IMG/VR virus record: IMGVR_UViG_2778261087_000010
DNA: 10,082 bases
Direction: 5' to 3' (one strand)
Source: a virus
Taxonomy: Duplodnaviria; Heunggongvirae; Uroviricota; Caudoviricetes
A program made the translations under genes and the position numbers. Below the pieces are notes generated by a model. It was given only the letters and a program-made list of their open reading frames with translations, made no database searches and was not told where the DNA came from. Positions 771 to 10,082 of this stretch are shown here, in pieces; positions within the stretch are counted from its first letter, which is position 1; each line of letters opens with the position of its first letter.

Positions 771-1730
771 TTACTCCTTGTCCATTGCGTACAGCCCATT
801 AACCAGAGCAAACTGTGGCACCCCGTCCGCGATGAAAGTCGCATTAACTCCGCAGGCTTCGCGGATAGCGGGTGCCACAATCTCCGCCCCACCACCGACA
901 ACCATCACCCGCCCGTAACCCGAAAAACCCGCCAGCGCGCGGATCACGCGTTGTTTCAGTGTTTCTTCCTTTTCACGAATAACCGCCATCAGGCTGGCGT
1001 AATGCGCGTCATTGTGGATGTGCTGGCGCAGCCAGGCTTCATCATGGCGATGTTCGATAATGGTATTGGCGATGTGGTGACTGGTGCGCATACCGTTAGT
1101 GGCCATCACCGACAGTACGGCATCGGCCATCAGAGAAACGCCTACGTGTGGATCGCAAAACACCTGGCTGATACCTGCCAGTTGCCCCTGAACCTTTGCC
1201 ACATCCAGCGTGGTTCCGCCCAAATCCACAATCAGCAGGGATTCAAACGGACTCATGTCAGCCAGTGCCTTAAAGCCAGCCGGAATGGATTCAGGCATAA
1301 CCCGTACGTTACGGATAGTGAATGCTTCGCCGTTCTGGTACTCCACCGGGCGCATAACGTTCGCTTTTTTGCGGTTGATGTTGGTCATGTCCGGCTGTGC
1401 GTTTGTGTCGAAATACTCGCTCAGTGGCAGGGTGACAACCACATCCACCTCCTGTGGCGTGATGCCTGATTTGACCAGCGCGTGATGAATGGCAATGACA
1501 TTCACATCGCTGTACTGGTATTGCGTGTCGGTCGTCTGGACAAAGCGATCGCTGACCGGATCAAAACCATAGCGCACGCCATCAAGCATGTAGTTTGCGG
1601 GCTGCGTGCCACCGAACGGCGCAGACCATTCCGACTTGAAGCTGTTCGGGCTGATGGCGTTGCGGCGTTCGCCGTTCTCAGTCCATGCCAGCTTGATGTT
1701 GGTGGAGCCGTCATCGATACAAATTTTCAT
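771..1730 (-). CDS. parM: ParM/StbA actin-like plasmid segregation ATPase (319 aa)
   Basis: N-terminus MKICIDDGSTNIKLAW plus blocks ISPNSFK, QYSDVNV.AIHHAL, RPVEYQNGEAFTIRNVRVMPESIPAG, LLIVDLGGTTLD and MVVGGGAE align by eye with R1 ParM. RBS AAGGAAAAG upstream of the ATG at 1728-1730. Confidence 0.9.
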   Translation of the reverse strand: MKICIDDGSTNIKLAWTENGERRNAISPNSFKSEWSAPFGGTQPANYMLDGVRYGFDPVSDRFVQTTDTQYQYSDVNVIAIHHALVKSGITPQEVDVVVTLPLSEYFDTNAQPDMTNINRKKANVMRPVEYQNGEAFTIRNVRVMPESIPAGFKALADMSPFESLLIVDLGGTTLDVAKVQGQLAGISQVFCDPHVGVSLMADAVLSVMATNGMRTSHHIANTIIEHRHDEAWLRQHIHNDAHYASLMAVIREKEETLKQRVIRALAGFSGYGRVMVVGGGAEIVAPAIREACGVNATFIADGVPQFALVNGLYAMDKE

Positions 1731-1759: not shown

Positions 1760-1870
1760 CGTTTACGGGATTCTGAAATCCCGTTTTTGCCTGTTTTATG
1801 CGCGCTTCATATATCGCGGCGCGTTTTTTGCTCATTTACGGGATTTGTGAATCCCGTTTCTGTCTGTTTT
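1760..1870. promoter_or_regulatory. Candidate parC-like centromere / parM promoter region with two direct copies of a hairpin repeat
   Basis: ACGGGATT-ctga-AATCCCGT at 1765-1784 and ACGGGATT-tgtg-AATCCCGT at 1838-1857, each in the context TTTACGGGATT...AATCCCGTTT followed by a T-run, 73 bp apart. The first lies between the gpA stop and parM start; the second overlaps the last ~20 codons of gpA. Confidence 0.4.
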
Positions 1871-4647
1871 TTGTTTCCACTGGTCAGGCCACCCCGCAGC
1901 AGGTCTGCTTTGCGGCGGGCGCGTTCAGTGGTTTCACTGATTCTCTGTGCGTGCTCTGCGTCGCGGATGGCGCGCAGCATGTCAGAAAGCACGGTAACGG
2001 GTGTTTTCATGGTGTTCTGGTCCTGCTGAAGTGTGGATGCCAGGCGTGCGGCGGCTTCGGGGTCTGATGCCCCCAGCTGTTCCAGATAGCTGGCGACCGG
2101 GTTATGGCGGATCTCCGTGCTGCTTACGCCGTGGTTACGGCTCAGGCGCTGCCAGAGCTGCGTGATCCGGCTGTCCGGGCGGGTATCCGGTTTGCGTACA
2201 ATTTCAAATCCCTGCGGTGCAATGATGCTGCCGTCAACGTACAGACTGCCGCCCCGTAACAGGTGCTGCATCTGCTGTTCACCAATATGCAGGCCGAGAG
2301 ATTCAGCAGACTCCCGCCATTCTTTAGCGAGTAATTCGTGGTTATCAGGCAAAGGCCGCTGCTGTTTGCGGCTCTGTGTCCAGCTCTGCATTTCATCACT
2401 GCTGTTTTTTGCCTGTTTGTCACGAAGCGAACGCATCAGCGCCCGGCGTTCGTGCCGTTTCAGTGAGCGCATCCATTCGTTCACTTCAACGCCGTCAGGG
2501 AGCTGCGGCCACGGTGCTGGCCGTTCTTCCGGCTGTTCTGTCCCGTTGTTGTCCGTTTCCTGTACACGGGGACAGTTATTGCCACGAGTCCAAGGGGCGG
2601 CAGGGCCGCCCTGAAGGTCAAAACCATTTTCGTGGGCGCTGCCTTCCTGTTCCGGTTTACGTCTTACCAGCTTCCAGTTATCCGGGTGCGTGCACACACG
2701 GGAGGATTCCCCGATGAGTGGTGACCAGATCCCGTAAATCTGTACACTCTGTTCGCCGTAATCGTTCAGCTCATCGGCGAGGTCGTAGGCGGTGCGAATC
2801 AGGTAGTCTTTGCGTGGAACAAGTACGCCGCCCTGTTTCTCTATGTAGGTGGCAAAACATCCGGCATCAGCGGCAGCGAGTACCGCATCCATTGCGTCAT
2901 CCTTCAGCCGTTGCGGGCCTTCCGGGTTGCGTGCCATCTGGCTGGCAAGGCGGCGGAGTTCACGCCACACCTGACGGGAGGGGATGCCAAAGAACTGGAA
3001 CTGGCGGACCCGGTGAAGGCGTGCCCAACCGATGGCGCGCTCCACGCTCTCGGCCATTGATTTTCCGGTTTCGTGGTCAACGCGTGGTTTGCCCGTTTTC
3101 GGGTCGATGCCATCCACGGCGCGGCTGTCCAGGTTTTTCCCGATGTAGGTCGCGATATAGCTGGTTGGTGTGCCTTTTGAGCCGTCGACATACTCCACTT
3201 TAAAGCGCGGAGTAATATCATTGCCCAGCTCGTGGCGGTCTTCCTGAATGGCAATATCGCGGGTGATGGCCACGATGCTGTCGATTTCTTCCGGATGAGC
3301 AAAGACCATCATATGCCAGTGCACGGTGCCGTCATGGTGAGGCTCCACCGTGCGGATGCCATACCAGCGCAGGCCGTCGCGGTTCAGTTTTTTGCGGACC
3401 GCCGCAAAAAACGTGTTAACCAGGTAATCGCTGGAGTCGCGCATGGTGGCCCCGTTCCATTTGGGGTTCGGATGACCGTTCTCCGTTGTTGCGTGGTATT
3501 TTGACGGGCAGGTGACAGTCAGAAACACCGCTCTGTCGCCACGGGCTTCGGCCAGAAGTTCCAGTCCCTTCATGGTGGCCATCATTTCTGCCTTACGGTG
3601 AACCGGGTTACTTACTCCCGCGTAATACACTGTCTCGAGATCAATCGTGAACCCGTCTTCGTTTTCCAGCATGAAACTTTTCAGGAAATCGCGTGTTTTC
3701 TCGCGCTGTGCGCGAAACTCGCTTAACGCGTCCTGGCTCAGATAGGGCGATGTTTTTCTGGAAACCAGACAGGCGGCGCGGAGTTGTTCTTCTCTCCACT
3801 CGCAACGTAACAGCCACAGTTTGCGTTTCCACCATTCCGCACAGGTCAGGCGAAGGATTGCGCCCGGCAGCAGCTCCGTGTCCGGTTCGTTCCTCCGGTC
3901 TTTATCTGTTGTCAGTGCGTCATAATGTGGAGGCATGATGTGCAGGTGTAACGCCATGCGGGCCAGCATCTGATACGCCTTCAGCGTTACATCCATGGTC
4001 AGTTCGCCATCGGTCGCGCCAAAGCCATCGCAGAGTTTTTCGAAGGTGCTGCTGAACATCGCCGCCGTCATGGTGGCCAGCGTCTGTATCTGGTGTTTGT
4101 TGAGCTGCGGCAGGTAAAGCAAATCGTCCAGGCGTTCGCGTCCGGCAAGGGAGCGATAACCCGGTGTCAGCCAGCGTCCGTCAGTGCGATCCAGACGTTC
4201 GAATATTTTGCGCAGGGTTCCGCGTGCATAGCGTTCCGCCTGCCAGCTCTTTTTGCCTTTCCGGCGATCAGCTTCCTGTTTTTTGCGCAGGAAGGAGAGG
4301 TGGCGACTCAGAGGTTCTCGCAGATAAACGGGAAGCGCCTTCAGTGTGGCAAAGGCACGGGCTACCGGGTCTTGTTCTGTTGCCCGGCGCTTACTGATGA
4401 TGCTCTGTGCCAGCTTTTCACGCTGTCCGGCTTCCTCAAGGGATGCCATGAGTTTTTTACCCATGGCGGATTGTGCGAAAAAGGCTTCTTCCTTCGCTTC
4501 CTGTTCTTCCTGTGCCCTTTTGTCCGCCTCAAGGTAGTAACGGATGGCGCGTTGCAGGTCGGTTTCAGTTTCCTGCCTGCGCTCCGTAAATCTGGCCGGA
4601 TCAATAGCTGGTCGTGGTTCATTCCAGCTCCATGCAAACGCACTCAT
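1807..4647 (-). CDS. Rolling-circle replication initiator, phage P2 gene A (GpA) family HUH endonuclease (946 aa)
   Basis: HUH motif in GTVHWHMMVFAHPE and paired catalytic tyrosines in TPTSYIATYIGKN (Y-x3-Y), the arrangement of the P2 A / phiX174 gpA family. Start taken as ATG 4645-4647, which overlaps the upstream ORF stop as ATGA; the GTG at 4672-4674 used by the track has no SD. Confidence 0.88.
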   Translation of the reverse strand: MSAFAWSWNEPRPAIDPARFTERRQETETDLQRAIRYYLEADKRAQEEQEAKEEAFFAQSAMGKKLMASLEEAGQREKLAQSIISKRRATEQDPVARAFATLKALPVYLREPLSRHLSFLRKKQEADRRKGKKSWQAERYARGTLRKIFERLDRTDGRWLTPGYRSLAGRERLDDLLYLPQLNKHQIQTLATMTAAMFSSTFEKLCDGFGATDGELTMDVTLKAYQMLARMALHLHIMPPHYDALTTDKDRRNEPDTELLPGAILRLTCAEWWKRKLWLLRCEWREEQLRAACLVSRKTSPYLSQDALSEFRAQREKTRDFLKSFMLENEDGFTIDLETVYYAGVSNPVHRKAEMMATMKGLELLAEARGDRAVFLTVTCPSKYHATTENGHPNPKWNGATMRDSSDYLVNTFFAAVRKKLNRDGLRWYGIRTVEPHHDGTVHWHMMVFAHPEEIDSIVAITRDIAIQEDRHELGNDITPRFKVEYVDGSKGTPTSYIATYIGKNLDSRAVDGIDPKTGKPRVDHETGKSMAESVERAIGWARLHRVRQFQFFGIPSRQVWRELRRLASQMARNPEGPQRLKDDAMDAVLAAADAGCFATYIEKQGGVLVPRKDYLIRTAYDLADELNDYGEQSVQIYGIWSPLIGESSRVCTHPDNWKLVRRKPEQEGSAHENGFDLQGGPAAPWTRGNNCPRVQETDNNGTEQPEERPAPWPQLPDGVEVNEWMRSLKRHERRALMRSLRDKQAKNSSDEMQSWTQSRKQQRPLPDNHELLAKEWRESAESLGLHIGEQQMQHLLRGGSLYVDGSIIAPQGFEIVRKPDTRPDSRITQLWQRLSRNHGVSSTEIRHNPVASYLEQLGASDPEAAARLASTLQQDQNTMKTPVTVLSDMLRAIRDAEHAQRISETTERARRKADLLRGGLTSGNKKQTETGFTNPVNEQKTRRDI

Positions 4648-5033
4648 GGCTGGTATCCCGTCACGCGCTGCCACTCCTGCGAGAAGAGGGCGGAAAGGCG
4701 GTTAAATTCAGCGGTGTATTCACTCAGCGAGGCACACCCGCCAGCAGTGCGATGCGCCAGCATTGCTGCAAATACGGAGGCCGGGGAGTCGTAATACGCC
4801 AGCAGTGATTCGCCGTGCGGTGTCAGGCAGTGCAACGCCAGTCCGTGTGGTGTGAAGTCCACGCGGTAGCAGTCGTCTACTGTGAAATAAAGGGTGTCTG
4901 CATTCTCCGGTTTTGTGGTGCGTGCTCTGTTGTCACGACCACGGATGTAGAGATCAAATAACCCCTGAAGAACGGGAGCCAGACGGGTGTCCTGTGTGCG
5001 CACCCATCTTGTGAAGTCATGAGTGTCAATCAT
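4644..5033 (-). CDS. Hypothetical protein (129 aa), translationally coupled to the replication initiator
   Basis: ORF with ATG at 5031-5033 and modest AGAGAA RBS; stop TGA 4644-4646 overlaps the gpA start. No recognised motif. Confidence 0.55.
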   Translation of the reverse strand: MIDTHDFTRWVRTQDTRLAPVLQGLFDLYIRGRDNRARTTKPENADTLYFTVDDCYRVDFTPHGLALHCLTPHGESLLAYYDSPASVFAAMLAHRTAGGCASLSEYTAEFNRLSALFSQEWQRVTGYQP

Positions 5034-5105: not shown

Positions 5106-5336
5106 TTAATGGAGTTTGTTTTGCTGCTGGATGAGCTGCTGAAGCTCGCGCAGATCATCCGCCAGATAGCTGAAAACAGCGGATGAATAGAGGTTTGAAA
5201 GTTCGCAGCTACGCTCATGCAGCATATTGATGTGCATGATTTTAGCGACGCGGAATGCGCGGGAAAGTCTGCGGTTGATTTCAGTCTGGATGTGACGACA
5301 CGCAGCGTATGCGCGGTGCTGTTTGCGGTTTGCCAT
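5106..5336 (-). CDS. Hypothetical small basic protein (76 aa)
   Basis: ATG 5334-5336 with good RBS AAAGAGG about 8 nt upstream; first gene after the terminator and the 19-bp palindrome. No zinc-finger Cys pattern, so not called Ogr-like. Confidence 0.5.
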   Translation of the reverse strand: MANRKQHRAYAACRHIQTEINRRLSRAFRVAKIMHINMLHERSCELSNLYSSAVFSYLADDLRELQQLIQQQNKLH

Positions 5337-5373: not shown

Positions 5374-5514
5374 CATCCAGAGGTTCCAAGCTCGGGGTGG
5401 TGAGACGTACAGGGTTGGAACTACCGGCAACCAAAGAACCCGGCCCGACCGAAGTCGGCCCCATACGCCCCACCATAATTCGTGTGCGAAAAAGACGTGG
5501 CGATACGGTACGCA

Positions 5515-5536
5515 CAAAAAAACCGCTGGCGCGGTT
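5515..5536 (-). terminator. Candidate rho-independent terminator closing the upstream small-gene block
   Basis: Minus strand reads AACCGC-GCCA-GCGGTT followed by TTTTT (6-bp stem, 4-nt loop, T-run), about 120 nt after the stop of the 5659-5958 gene. Confidence 0.5.
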
Positions 5537-5658
5537 GTGCGCTTTGGTTGTCAGCGGGGTTCCAATCCCGGCACCCGTTTTATGAGGTGCAGCGGAAATG
5601 TAACCTGACTGATTGCGGCATGGCAAGCGGTTTTTTTGTGTGTGCATGCTCTGGTTTC

Positions 5659-6444: not shown

Positions 6445-6861
6445 CTATGCGTTAAATACGGCACGTTGCGCGTCATCAATGAATACAGCTTGAGAGCGTT
6501 CTATCAGGCGGAGATTTGTCAGAAGCTCTGACTCTTTTGTGTGGTAAGGCGTTATCAGGTATTTGCCGTGCAGTTCGGCAATAATGGTGTATTGCAGCAT
6601 CATTGCTGAACCAAGAATATAAATGCAGCGTCCAATGCTGGACGGATTCATGGCTGCAACTGTTGACTGTGTTTTAAGAGTGTCGATTTCTTTGCTCTGT
6701 TCCTCAATAATTTTGGCTGCGTCAGCGGTGATTTTTGCAATGGTCAGTGCGTGAAGTGCTGCCATATGTTGGCTACGCTTCACGGCATCTTTAGCCATTT
6801 CATCTTCCGCTTCTGATATTTTTTTTAATGTGTCGATAATGCCTTCTTCTTTTGCGTTCAT
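6445..6861 (-). CDS. Hypothetical protein (138 aa), AT-rich cargo gene
   Basis: ATG 6859-6861 with GGAG about 8 nt upstream. Sampled 60-nt windows are ~38% GC here versus ~63% inside gpA. Predicted helical N-terminus and a hydrophobic stretch IGRCIYILGSAMMLQYTIIAEL. Confidence 0.55.
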   Translation of the reverse strand: MNAKEEGIIDTLKKISEAEDEMAKDAVKRSQHMAALHALTIAKITADAAKIIEEQSKEIDTLKTQSTVAAMNPSSIGRCIYILGSAMMLQYTIIAELHGKYLITPYHTKESELLTNLRLIERSQAVFIDDAQRAVFNA

Positions 6862-6953
6862 TTTATATCTCCGTTATTTACATGTGCGAATACCTCCGCG
6901 AATGCGGATAGTTTTCAGGTTTTCGGGTTTAATCTGGTGTTTTGTTTAAGCTG

Positions 6954-7067
6954 TTATTCGTCAGTGAAAAAGCGTTCAATCTTTTTTACTGAATGAATAA
7001 TTCGCATAATCCCAATGGCGCAGGCCACCGAAATAATCAGAACAAGCCATGAGATAAATATACTCAT
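6954..7067 (-). CDS. Small single-helix membrane peptide (37 aa), not in the supplied ORF track
   Basis: Hand translation of the minus strand gives MSIFISWLVLIISVACAIGIMRIIHSVKKIERFFTDE, stop TAA 6954-6956. Its ATG 7065-7067 overlaps the stop TGA 7064-7066 of the upstream gene (ATGA). Hydrophobic core with a charged tail. Confidence 0.4.
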   Translation of the reverse strand: MSIFISWLVLIISVACAIGIMRIIHSVKKIERFFTDE

Positions 7068-7306
7068 GCGATATTCCCCAGCTTATACGGTTCAATATGT
7101 TCCCCGCATTCTGCGGCACAGATCAGCTCGGAAAGTTCGTTAAGTGCATCCAGATCATCAGCGTAAAAAGCGACGTCATACAAACTCCGGATTGCCCTGG
7201 TCAATGAGTCACGGGCTGCACGTTCAGCATGAGCGCCTGATGCACTTAAGCGAAAATAAAATCGTTCAAGTGCTTTGTTAATGAGAGTTTTATATTCTTT
7301 GCCCAT
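7064..7306 (-). CDS. Hypothetical protein (80 aa)
   Basis: Internal ATG 7304-7306 (MGKEYKTLINKALERF...) with AAGGG upstream; the longer track ORF from 7357 would overlap the preceding gene. Confidence 0.5.
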   Translation of the reverse strand: MGKEYKTLINKALERFYFRLSASGAHAERAARDSLTRAIRSLYDVAFYADDLDALNELSELICAAECGEHIEPYKLGNIA

Positions 7307-7317
7307 CGCAGCGCCCT

Positions 7318-7605
7318 TTAATCTGCTTTCTGAATTCCAGCTTCTGAATCCATACAAATAATTTCGATATATGGTTCATCGCCATTAACCTGACGTGCCT
7401 TTTCAGCTTCGCTAATGATTTCTCGTACGGTCTGGTACGGAAGTTCCACAAGCAGTCGCGTGCCGTTCAGATAAACGTAAGTGGCTTCGTCGGCTCCGTT
7501 TTTACCCGCCGGAGTCACTCCGTCAATAGCGGATGCACGTAATAACAGTTCACCGCGAAAATCAATAAAACGGATAAATACACCTTGTGCATGGTCTTTG
7601 GTCAT
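7318..7605 (-). CDS. Hypothetical protein (95 aa)
   Basis: Internal ATG 7603-7605 (MTKDHAQGVFIRF...) preceded by AGGTG at 5-nt spacing; the track start at 7719 would overlap the upstream gene by ~100 nt. Confidence 0.5.
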   Translation of the reverse strand: MTKDHAQGVFIRFIDFRGELLLRASAIDGVTPAGKNGADEATYVYLNGTRLLVELPYQTVREIISEAEKARQVNGDEPYIEIICMDSEAGIQKAD

Positions 7606-7615
7606 AAAGCACCTG

Positions 7616-7954
7616 TTATAAATCAGCCTGTTTAATAAAACTTTGCCCGCGAAGCAGACGATCAACCGTGCGAAGTGCTTCGTATAATGTGAAATCCTGC
7701 CCGAACTGATTGTCGCCACAGCTCAATGCAAAAATGCGGTTTCCGGTAAACGGATTGCGTGGGCATTTGTGGATCACGATTCCAGCTTTCTCAATCAGCC
7801 AGGCGTGCTCGCCGATTTGTTTTACTGGGTAGCCATCCGGCGTTGCGTGTGTATCACTCAGGCTGTAGCGGATGTTGCTGCGTGATGCACTGGTAGTGAA
7901 ACGGTTAGCGTGGCGTTCTGTTCCGGTACGAAAATTACGGCGTTGCTTCAGCAT
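7616..7954 (-). CDS. Hypothetical protein (112 aa)
   Basis: ATG 7952-7954, GAGGTG upstream, 14-bp gap after the Cox-like gene stop; second gene of the leftward operon. Confidence 0.55.
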   Translation of the reverse strand: MLKQRRNFRTGTERHANRFTTSASRSNIRYSLSDTHATPDGYPVKQIGEHAWLIEKAGIVIHKCPRNPFTGNRIFALSCGDNQFGQDFTLYEALRTVDRLLRGQSFIKQADL

Positions 7955-7968
7955 AAAATGACACCTCG

Positions 7969-8247
7969 TTATTTTGTCATCTGCACGTATTTTTCTGCGC
8001 TCCTGATTGTTTTCAGGAAAAGAGCGAAGAGATTTACTGTGCGTCTTGAGTTCTTTTCATCCTGGTTGATGGGAATTGAACCTCTGTCAGCCTGTCTTTT
8101 CACTGTGTTAACAGCTTGGTTGGTACGTTTTGCGTAATCTTTCAGGCTTTCTTCAAGTACTGGTAACCCATGCTCATCGCGGTAGGGATAGAACGCTGCT
8201 AACCGCTCAAAGTCTGCCTGTTCGTGTGTGTTCAGGACTTTTGCCAT
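7969..8247 (-). CDS. Cox/Apl/excisionase-like small DNA-binding protein (92 aa), first gene of the leftward early operon
   Basis: Divergent from the repressor-like gene across the operator region, as cox/apl are in P2/186. Segment YAKRTNQAVNTVKRQADRGSIPI...RRTVNLFA resembles Xis/AlpA-type winged helices. Called on position and motif only. Confidence 0.5.
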   Translation of the reverse strand: MAKVLNTHEQADFERLAAFYPYRDEHGLPVLEESLKDYAKRTNQAVNTVKRQADRGSIPINQDEKNSRRTVNLFALFLKTIRSAEKYVQMTK

Positions 8248-8285: not shown

Positions 8286-8339
8286 GGTGTACTTATAAGT
8301 ACACCTTGTGCGCAAGCTTAGTGTACTTATAGGAACACT
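8286..8339. promoter_or_regulatory. Genetic-switch operator region: perfect 20-bp palindrome plus a degenerate second copy
   Basis: GGTGTACTTATAAGTACACC at 8286-8305; GTGTACTTATAGGAACAC within 8320-8339 shares the left half-site and overlaps the RBS of the repressor-like gene. Centres are about 34 bp apart, between the divergent starts at 8247 and 8344. Confidence 0.6.
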
Positions 8340-8343
8340 GTCA

Positions 8344-8652
8344 ATGCTTATCGGTGAAAAAATTAGAGTGATTCGTGAATCAGAGGATTTAACGCGCGAA
8401 GAATTTTGCGGCCTGATTGATGTGCCTATCGGCACTTTGCGTCGTTATGAAACGGGGCGGATTGAAAACATAGGGGGCGAAGTGCTTATCAAGATTGTTA
8501 ATCACCCTCGCTTTTTTAAGTACATGAATTGGCTTATGACGGGAAAAACAAATGAGGCTGCTGGGCAGATCAGTCCGTCTCTCTCCCCTGATGGGCCAAA
8601 AAGCACATCGCCTTCTCAAAAACCCCGCAAGACTGGCACACAGCCCGGCTAA
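8344..8652 (+). CDS. HTH (XRE-type) immunity repressor-like protein (102 aa), P2 C / 186 cI position
   Basis: ATG 8344-8346 with AGGAA 8 nt upstream. N-terminal helix-turn-helix signature EKIRVIRESEDLTREEFCGLIDVPIGTLRRYETG. Immediately upstream of and co-oriented with the integrase. The track GTG start at 8308 lies inside the operators and is rejected. Confidence 0.75.
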   Translation: MLIGEKIRVIRESEDLTREEFCGLIDVPIGTLRRYETGRIENIGGEVLIKIVNHPRFFKYMNWLMTGKTNEAAGQISPSLSPDGPKSTSPSQKPRKTGTQPG

Positions 8653-8701
8653 TCATGGAGCGCTGGGGGCATGGTGGTCTTGTAACGCTGGGGTTTCACG
8701 A

Positions 8702-9676
8702 ATGAGCATAAAATCAATTCCGGGAGGGTATCTTCTTGACATGCGCCCTGAGGGGCGTAAAGGCAAACGCATTCGCAAAAAATTTAAAACGAAATCGGAT
8801 GCAGTTTTATATGAGCGGTGGGTGCTGGCGCAACAGCATAACAATGAGTGGAAAGGAGACTCTATTGATCGCCGTCCTCTGTCAGTGCTTATTGACTTGT
8901 GGTGGAAATACCACGGCCAGCTAATGAAGTCAGGGCATAACACGCGCCTTAAATTGCTGCGCTTGAGTGAGGCAATGGATGACCCGTGCGTGCATAAACT
9001 TAATACAACAATGCTCACCGAGCTACGTGTGTCCAGGATAGAGCAGGGGATACAGCCCAGCACCATAAATCGAGAGATTGGGGCGTTAAGCGCGATGTTT
9101 ACCGCACTCATCTCATCCGGCCATTTTCTTAACGATAACCCCGTTCAAGGCCTTAAAGGAATGAAGGTTAACGAGCGCGAAATGGGATATCTGAGTAAGT
9201 CTGAATGTGTTCAGTTGCTGGATGCACTGGCTGAAAATCCCGATGAACGGCTGGCTGTCGAAATCCTTCTGTCGACCGGGGCGCGATGGGGCGAGGTAGC
9301 GGCACTGGAGCAGCGCCGTGTTCTTCATTGTCGAATCACTTTTTCAAAAACGAAGAACAGCAAAAACCGTACCGTTCCTATTTCTGAAAGCCTGTTTGAA
9401 AAGATCAAAATACGGGGCGGGAAACTGGTGTTTCCGACGCTGGATTATCCATTGGTTCGCGATGTCATCAAAACGGTCGCACCTGATGTTCCTGACGGCC
9501 AGGCTGTTCATGCGCTGCGCCACACCTTCGCCAGTCATTTCATGATGAACGGCGGCAATATTCTGACGCTCCAGAAAATTCTGGGGCACGCAAAGATTCA
9601 GACAACGATGATTTATGCCCATCTTGCGCCGGATTACTTGCAGGATGCGGTGAGATTTAATCCTATTGCTGGGTAA
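8702..9676 (+). CDS. int: Tyrosine recombinase / phage integrase (324 aa)
   Basis: C-terminal catalytic signature HALRHTFASHFMMNGGNILTLQKILGHAKIQTTMIYAHL (R...H-x-x-R...Y) and core-binding-like N-terminus; size near P2 Int. Start at ATG 8702 (MSIKSIPGGYLLD); the longer track ORF from 8552 overlaps the repressor gene. Confidence 0.9.
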   Translation: MSIKSIPGGYLLDMRPEGRKGKRIRKKFKTKSDAVLYERWVLAQQHNNEWKGDSIDRRPLSVLIDLWWKYHGQLMKSGHNTRLKLLRLSEAMDDPCVHKLNTTMLTELRVSRIEQGIQPSTINREIGALSAMFTALISSGHFLNDNPVQGLKGMKVNEREMGYLSKSECVQLLDALAENPDERLAVEILLSTGARWGEVAALEQRRVLHCRITFSKTKNSKNRTVPISESLFEKIKIRGGKLVFPTLDYPLVRDVIKTVAPDVPDGQAVHALRHTFASHFMMNGGNILTLQKILGHAKIQTTMIYAHLAPDYLQDAVRFNPIAG

Positions 9677-9686
9677 GGAGGATGTT

Positions 9687-10082
9687 GTGGAAAAAACAGT
9701 TAATAGCGATTTGCATTTAGGTCAGTACTGGAGAATAGACATTGTATGCGATCCAGAACTTCGAGATGAGGTTGAGCAATATTTTTCTCTACACGATGTT
9801 GGTTTTAGCAAAATTGAAGTTTTTTCCGTCGAAAATCCATATAAACTTGCTCTATTCTTTGATTTCGCGAAGAAGGGTGTGGAGGTTGCAAAAGCCATTA
9901 TGGGACTCTTAGACCGAAATGATATTGAAATAACGATGTATCGTGCTACGGACAGTAGCCCGCAGTCTGTAAAAAGCATCAAATTGCGTAAGTCTGAAGA
10001 CGTAGAGAAATGTAAAGATTTGCTTAGTACGTGTGTTGCAATTGGCGTTCAACGAAATAAGGAAAAAGAGGGGAGTGAATGA
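9687..10082 (+). CDS. Hypothetical protein (131 aa), AT-rich gene coupled to the integrase 3' end
   Basis: Integrase stop TAA 9674-9676 is followed directly by GGAGGA (9677-9682) and an in-frame GTG at 9687. Sampled window ~32% GC. Stop TGA is at the last three bases of the window. The start could instead be the TTG at 9666. Confidence 0.5.
   Translation: MEKTVNSDLHLGQYWRIDIVCDPELRDEVEQYFSLHDVGFSKIEVFSVENPYKLALFFDFAKKGVEVAKAIMGLLDRNDIEITMYRATDSSPQSVKSIKLRKSEDVEKCKDLLSTCVAIGVQRNKEKEGSE

Follow-up and report, generated by a model that had tools for sequence, protein, structure and literature searches.

A 37-residue predicted membrane protein encoded behind DUF4754 in the early operon of P88-type prophages

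The locus and its early operon

The window, as we call the stretch of 10,082 nucleotides analyzed here, corresponds to the early region of a P88-like prophage (genus Xuanwuvirus) of the P2 type. At 6954-7067 on the minus strand, stop codon included, the window carries a 37-codon ORF. Its coding strand begins ATG AGT ATA and ends GAC GAA TAA, and the encoded peptide is MSIFISWLVLIISVACAIGIMRIIHSVKKIERFFTDE. The first-pass annotation of this DNA had described the ORF as unannotated, which is true only for the list of ORFs that it worked from; RefSeq, P88, and UniRef records all carry the gene. In a 97.7%-identical E. coli locus, RefSeq (PGAP) annotates exactly this ORF as the CDS WP_000021654.1, a hypothetical protein. 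The same gene is gp07 of phage P88, a ‘membrane protein’ (YP_009113050.1), and the UniRef name for the peptide is ‘Prophage membrane protein’. The ORF is thus the small membrane protein gene of the P88 gp07 family.

The peptide gene is the fifth cistron of the Cox-side early operon. On the minus strand, the operon consists of cox (7969-8247), the DUF4761 gene (7616-7954), the phrog_3800 gene (7318-7608), the DUF4754 gene (7064-7306), and the peptide gene, in that order. This assignment is based on the RefSeq annotation of the 97.7%-identical locus, the P88 genome, and the Pfam and PHROG matches of the neighboring genes. Downstream of the peptide gene on the same strand are the phrog_9338 gene (6445-6861), several small genes, and the gene for the gpA replication endonuclease (1807-4674). 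A ParM-like plasmid segregation gene (771-1730, minus strand) lies directly downstream of gpA. In related loci and in P88 a gene of a partition/stability family follows the ParM-type gene, hinting at an option of plasmid-like maintenance. The plus strand codes for a C-type helix-turn-helix (HTH) repressor (8308-8652) and the integrase (8552-9676). Just past the integrase gene begins an ORF of at least 138 aa with no obvious identity (9666-10082, plus strand), which runs off the end of the window; it could represent cargo at the attachment-site end or the flanking host gene.

The gap between the repressor gene and cox (8287-8344, minus strand) contains a perfect -35 element, TTGACA (8344-8339), a weak -10 element, TAAGCT (8320-8315), and two direct repeats of ATAAGTACAC on the operon strand (8330-8321 and 8296-8287). 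With a simple promoter scan, this gap stayed below threshold. By analogy with the annotated Pe promoter of P2, the gap is probably the early promoter with paired operators. Elsewhere in the window, Rfam gave gathering-level matches to the C4 antisense RNA (84 bits) and the Hfq-binding sRNA isrK (69.5 bits). The two adjoin each other (5393-5480 and 5516-5590, both minus strand), just upstream of a 76-aa ORF of the ‘derepression protein’ type (5106-5336, minus strand). The RNA pair and this ORF look like an antirepressor control module in a P2-like early region.

The peptide family and selection on its gene

To collect relatives we used as homology search query the frame of the peptide extended by three upstream codons. 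A family profile searched against 1.84 billion representative proteins at E≤0.001 gave only 18 matches, and the family is confined to enterobacteria. The profile search also uncovered another subfamily, whose members have 41 aa (for example MNILISWLILILAIICAVGTMRIINGIKTIESLFTGDKRHK) and are likewise common in E. coli prophages. The full-length 114-nt ORF of the window is found in 1320 of 5426 complete E. coli genomes (about 24%), O157:H7 strains included, and when rows were sampled from across the 1321 E. coli records that match, every one had an annotated CDS over the ORF. P88 gp07 and WP_000021654.1 are 97% identical to the window peptide, with the same length, position after DUF4754, and overlap, and without any material difference; their annotations assign no function. 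The peptide conforms to the family in its length (37-41 aa) and in the pattern M-[SN]-[IV]-[FL]-x-S-W … G19 … [RK]22 … I30-E31 … F34, and its gene, part of a P2-like early operon, directly follows DUF4754 and overlaps it by ATGA. The peptide is a member of the already annotated, functionally uncharacterized P88 gp07 family. The family has no match in Pfam (E up to 0.1), PHROG, NCBIfam (E up to 1), or PADLOC (E up to 1), and neither these collections nor the profile searches gave homology to any characterized protein. Literature searches covering the peptide, DUF4754, P88, and small membrane proteins from the early operons of P2-like phages returned nothing on this gene.

The window was compared with 113 related loci. 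Of these, 80 are on viral contigs and were reached via DUF4754, and 11 were ascertained via divergent DUF4754; the others come from annotated genomes and phages or have divergent DUF4754 or peptide variants. The peptide and DUF4754 genes overlap by the four nucleotides ATGA (7064-7067, minus strand), the ATG of the peptide gene (7067-7065) sharing bases with the TGA of DUF4754 (7066-7064) in the junction GCATGAGT. The first-pass annotation had singled out this start codon overlapping the upstream stop, and the comparison bears it out, with the ATGA junction kept in the window and in all 113 related loci (102 plus the 11 ascertained via divergent DUF4754), well in excess of what chance would give. 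A Shine-Dalgarno (SD)-like GGGGA (7075-7079, minus strand) lies 7 nt before the ATG, within the last DUF4754 codons, with an anti-SD duplex of -5.5 kcal/mol. Every lineage has an SD-like element 3-9 nt upstream of the ATG. The strongest are those of the 41-aa subfamily (GAGGAG/AGGAGG, -7.6 to -10.3 kcal/mol), which are retained despite divergence of the DUF4754 codons that carry them. The ATGA overlap and the conserved SD-like element suggest that translation of the peptide is coupled to that of DUF4754. A hairpin at the start codon in the window (CAUGAG/CUCAUG) was set aside as it is not retained in other lineages.

The 92-nt gap after the peptide gene (6862-6953) contains a 5-bp hairpin or palindrome, TCCGC-N4-GCGGA (6895-6908, on either strand), found once per locus about 31-46 nt past the peptide stop codon. 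It is present in 103 of 103 sequences, 75 matching this pattern and 28 having TCCGT-ATTA-ACGGA, with a compensatory change in the fifth pair. The loop varies while the stem, apart from the compensated form, is invariant across lineages with unrelated downstream genes. On the plus strand the hairpin is followed by a T-rich tract and is terminator-like for transcription antisense to the operon. Eight of the 11 loci ascertained via divergent DUF4754 lack the hairpin, as do the early regions of P2 and 186, and no Rfam family matches either the peptide region or the hairpin. In one lineage (L111:1878-1973; also L109-L116) a second tiny hydrophobic ORF of 31 aa, MKNVKAILTIATVWVIFQVSALIWLALKIWE, begins 12 nt past the peptide stop codon, in place of the missing hairpin.

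We then asked how the gene has evolved. The first 80 viral loci were nearly identical, giving a weak early dN/dS result, and loci of the 41-aa subfamily were then added. Among the 28 pairs of eight representatives spanning both subfamilies, dN/dS was 0.10-0.40 in 24, with dS saturated in the remaining four. Pooled pN/pS was 0.37 in the frame of the ORF; the two remaining sense frames gave 0.96 and 2.22. Variable sites are distributed 25/13/34 over codon positions 1, 2, and 3 (p=0.0098). None of the 41 unique alleles has an in-frame stop codon, while each of the other five frames is stopped in 30-41 of the 41. The peptide also evolves more slowly than DUF4754 (dN about 0.1-0.4 versus about 0.3-1.0), a comparison that omits the closest pair and the pairs with L090, in which the ungapped DUF4754 alignment is out of register. 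A codon-level comparison had been proposed as a check in the first-pass annotation, and the dN/dS values, the pN/pS values, and the stop-free frame clearly favor a real coding gene.

That annotation had also held that stops or frameshifts in this frame beside intact flanking genes would speak against the peptide. Among 103 sequences (the window and 102 loci), 98 have a 37- or 41-aa ORF, three a 45-aa allele, and two a disrupted copy. The two truly disrupted copies, L083 and L091, are in records whose neighboring genes are frameshifted too, so broken copies occur only beside frameshifted neighbors, and in the 45-aa alleles only the last 4-9 residues are replaced. Phage 503458, considered as a counter-example for its broken peptide ORF, was uninformative, with DUF4754 and gpA broken there too. 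Together with the frame-specific selection, this pattern argues that the gene is real. Judged from these sequences, the ORF at 6954-7067 is a bona fide coding gene, and purifying selection acts on it in this frame alone.

The 5′ two-thirds of the gene, coding for the helix described below, are the best-conserved nucleotide stretch of the region. This island of nucleotide conservation arises because L089 (3501-3626) and L090 (3501-3626) are in-frame chimeras, in which codons 1-24 match the 37-aa subfamily and the remaining codons the 41-aa subfamily. Recombination has thus had a breakpoint within a gene of 40 codons and left the frame unbroken. That the ORF encodes no functional protein, being open by chance or held by a constraint on the nucleic acid, draws on its very short length and on the nucleotide conservation of its 5′ two-thirds, but we consider it extremely improbable given the frame-specific selection, a frame free of stops despite saturated synonymous divergence, the conservative replacements between subfamilies 51-65% identical to the window peptide, the retained SD-like element, and the recombination that accounts for the island.

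The 3′ end of the gene has two sites of recurrent 1-nt deletion. One is an A6 homopolymer run (6982-6987, minus strand; codons 27-29), where deletion yields 45-aa alleles (variants …SVKRLNAFSL…). The second is a T5 run (6967-6971, minus strand; codons 32-34), which is T6 in many alleles (variants …IERFSLVNN…). The 45-aa alleles are fairly common, are found in many independent assemblies, and have a new hydrophilic C-terminus (for example …IERFSLVNNSTNKTPD). The A and T runs may be slippage-prone sites, or the deletions may partly be sequencing error. As alleles with replaced C-termini are fairly common, the extreme end of the tail may be dispensable.

The predicted helix and the DUF4754 protein

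Codons 3-21 of the gene (7005-7061, minus strand) encode a transmembrane helix, IFISWLVLIISVACAIGIM, predicted by Kyte-Doolittle hydropathy and AlphaFold. The 19-residue Kyte-Doolittle maximum of the peptide, 2.68 over residues 3-21, ranks first among all 120 window ORFs of 30 aa or more; when the window was shuffled 200 times, only 3 of the 24,413 resulting ORFs came up to it. AlphaFold, given a 19-sequence alignment, modeled one continuous helix over residues 2-35 (pLDDT 89.2). Codons 22-37 (6957-7004, minus strand) encode the tail RIIHSVKKIERFFTDE, predicted to be cytoplasmic and amphipathic from its hydrophobic moment (0.72 for residues 22-35) and its conserved positions. The tail has four K/R and three D/E residues, and all charged residues of the peptide are C-terminal of the hydrophobic stretch. 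The hydrophobic core and charged C-terminal tail noted in the first-pass annotation are thus confirmed, and its view of a small single-helix membrane protein whose gene is tightly joined to the upstream gene is supported, the helix being a prediction. The positive-inside rule, on which the topology prediction relies, places the N-terminus outside and the C-terminus in the cytoplasm, with only about two residues predicted to face the periplasm.

Positions conserved in both subfamilies are M1, F4, S6, W7, L10, I11, A17, G19, I20, R22, I24, I30, E31, and F34, of which I24, I30, E31, and F34 are in the tail. The tail motif K-x-I-E-x-[LF]-F-T-G-[DE] is common to the 37-aa and 41-aa subfamilies. At the remaining positions of the helix only swaps among I, L, V, M, and F are seen. 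Conservation of the polar and small residues S6, W7, A17, and G19 and of R22 and E31 points to a specific rather than a generic constraint on the sequence. The conserved positions are not significantly one-sided on the helix (p about 0.5). As they do not lie on one face, we make no claim of an interaction surface.

The upstream gene encodes an 80-aa protein, starts with the ATG at 7306, and matches DUF4754 (PF15946) with 181.7 bits (E=3e-54; gathering threshold 27 bits). In its AlphaFold model (pLDDT 89.3) the protein is a bundle of three helices followed by a disordered C-terminal tail. A fold search with this model gave no structural neighbor at E≤0.001. A BLAST hint of a relationship between DUF4754 and P2 gpB was rejected (hhalign probability 1.8%). 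DUF4754 proteins longer than 80 aa were considered as natural fusions with the peptide and were also rejected, all being frameshift products.

Candidate roles of the peptide

The reading we favor, at a probability of roughly 0.55, is that the gene encodes a bitopic inner-membrane micro-protein, an accessory factor of early lytic growth that would act through its helix on a target in the host membrane. Production of the peptide would be restricted to times at which the early promoter is active, namely lytic development or the period shortly after infection, and termination-reinitiation would tie its amount to that of DUF4754. It would insert with the N-terminus out and the C-terminus in, residues 3-21 spanning the bilayer. 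R22 would snorkel at the cytoplasmic interface and residues 22-35 would form an amphipathic helix on the inner leaflet. The transmembrane helix would then bind a protein or complex of the host inner membrane. As a micro-protein modulator, the peptide may influence division, envelope synthesis, or DNA entry, in the operon slot that phage 186 gives to fil and dhr. Its mode of action would be on a specific target, rather than that of a non-specific depolarizing toxin or a holin. Depolarizing type I toxins are also conserved small helices, and conservation alone thus does not discriminate between the readings.

A bolder form of this proposal, which is speculative and which we regard as improbable, is that the peptide inhibits one essential protein of the host inner membrane through its transmembrane helix and forms a two-gene module with DUF4754. 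It would then resemble a ‘protein antibiotic’ or a divisome mimic, with a target for example in the divisome or the lipid II pathway, and could pause division or envelope growth early in infection. If true, P2-like phages would have a new class of host-takeover effector, and the 37 residues would be a lead to a druggable membrane target.

The main alternative to a host target is that the peptide is the inner-membrane anchor or partner of DUF4754, the two subunits of a complex being made in fixed proportion through the ATGA junction. The organization of the genes is consistent with such a complex. DUF4754 is directly before the peptide gene in the window and in 113 of 113 loci, always with the 4-nt overlap, although the flanking genes are mosaic and shuffled around the pair. 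The DUF4754 model is that of a small, soluble bundle of helices whose tail is disordered, and the conserved cytoplasmic amphipathic tail of the peptide could dock such a partner. However, the histories of the two genes differ. L089 and L096 are 88% identical in the peptide and only 47% in DUF4754, and the L089/L090 chimeras indicate that recombination separates the partners freely. In L087 (3001-3330) and L088 (601-930) DUF4754 has a 1-nt deletion, giving a 109-aa read-through that crosses the peptide gene in another frame, yet the peptide ORF is intact; eight contigs represent this lineage. The discordant trees and the L087/L088 lineage weaken the case for an obligate complex of DUF4754 and the peptide, and we judge the anchor role doubtful, though it fares better than the roles considered next.

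Three such roles were raised in the first-pass annotation, which likened the peptide to exclusion factors, membrane-depolarizing toxins, and holin-like effectors. A superinfection-exclusion factor would block entry of phage DNA at the inner membrane, being produced at an early stage of infection or, through leaky expression, in the lysogen. Early-expressed membrane proteins of phages are often exclusion factors, and the position in the early operon and the predicted inner-membrane location fit this role. The presence of the module in 1320 of 5426 complete E. coli genomes also fits a selectable benefit. On the other hand, only about two residues would face the periplasm, and a crude consensus scan found no promoter of the gene’s own above chance level. 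Lysogens of P2-type phages keep the early operon repressed, and operator-like repeats are present here; lysogenic-conversion genes of P2-type phages are found elsewhere, under their own promoters, as with P2 tin. The T4 proteins Imm and Sp and other early superinfection-exclusion membrane proteins are expressed early and located in the inner membrane, as is proposed for the peptide. The peptide differs from them in being much smaller, with almost no predicted periplasmic exposure and no similarity to them, and it had no PADLOC match at E up to 1. We consider an exclusion function unlikely, though conceivable during lytic growth.

Less probable still is a toxin that depolarizes the membrane as part of a type I toxin-antitoxin or abortive-infection system. 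The known toxins of type I (Hok/Gef, Ldr, TisB, Fst) have about 30-50 aa, with a single hydrophobic helix and a charged tail, and the peptide is like Hok-, Ldr-, Fst-, and TisB-type toxins in all three respects. The conserved terminator-like hairpin on the antisense strand, 46 nt past the peptide stop codon, could also be taken to favor this role, but it does not overlap the ORF. Nor did a consensus scan find a promoter-like site antisense to the ORF, promoter counts being at chance level, and Rfam had no antitoxin RNA at the peptide region. Of the hallmarks of a type I toxin, the small hydrophobic ORF is present; an antisense or divergent regulatory RNA gene that has its own promoter and pairs with the toxin mRNA, a stand-alone locus with a promoter and a structured 5′ UTR, and a known toxin family were not found, the last in Pfam (E up to 0.1) and NCBIfam (E up to 1). 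Unlike those toxins, the peptide is encoded by an internal, overlapped cistron of a long polycistronic operon, and P88 has a true hok/gef gene elsewhere. The latter (34928-35068 in P88, our L105) is annotated as a host-killing gene of the hok/gef family, MokW-like, and lies near the other end, distinct from gp07.

A holin-like or lysis-timing effector draws on the single predicted transmembrane helix and the charged C-terminus of the peptide, but this role is very improbable. The gene belongs to the early operon, and the lysis genes of P88 (holin/antiholin gp30, endolysin gp31, and gp32) are in the late region, about 15 kb away. Neither Pfam nor PHROG gave a match to a holin family, and at 37 aa the peptide is shorter than characterized holins are known to be. 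The context of the gene, as an internal early cistron with no antisense promoter and no toxin family match in a phage type that in P88 has both a toxin gene and lysis genes elsewhere, thus makes the suggested toxin or holin-like role unlikely.

The finding is a sound rediscovery of a hypothetical gene that was annotated before. It is carried by about 24% of complete E. coli genomes and has no family model. Small phage membrane proteins are under-studied, and some have proved to be exclusion factors or to inhibit membrane machines of the host with precision. A strongly selected helix of 37 residues, always found with one partner gene, is a cheap and well-defined target for a functional test.

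The proposed target-specific factor of early lytic growth can be compared with the products of a similar position in phage 186. The fil and dhr genes of 186 are small (75 and 66 aa) and overlapping, and they end the first block of the early operon between a Cox/Apl-type gene and the replicase gene A. They are annotated as ‘cell division inhibitor’ (fil) and ‘inhibits host DNA replication’ (dhr). Fil and Dhr have no similarity to the peptide and no transmembrane segment, with Kyte-Doolittle maxima of 1.26 and 0.49 against 2.68, and small hydrophobic ORFs are absent from this part of the P2 and 186 early operons. The analogy with the fil/dhr slot is positional only.

As regards single-gene lysis peptides such as LysM, a lysis protein made early would be counterproductive in a phage that, like P88, has a holin-endolysin cassette. 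We also compared the peptide with the divisome micro-protein Blr, having verified the Blr sequence beforehand. There is a weak local resemblance between the peptide and the Blr helix (WLVLIISV against WIVLVVSV). The similarity was rejected, with an hhalign probability of 27% over 12 columns, a shuffle p of 0.02-0.09, and a post-hoc choice of the comparison. By kind, the peptide belongs with the small phage-encoded and bacterial single-pass membrane proteins. Among such proteins Blr, SidA, AcrZ, and MgrB, which modulate membrane proteins of the host, and the 37-aa LysM of phage M are helices of 30-50 aa that are active through helix-helix contacts in the bilayer.
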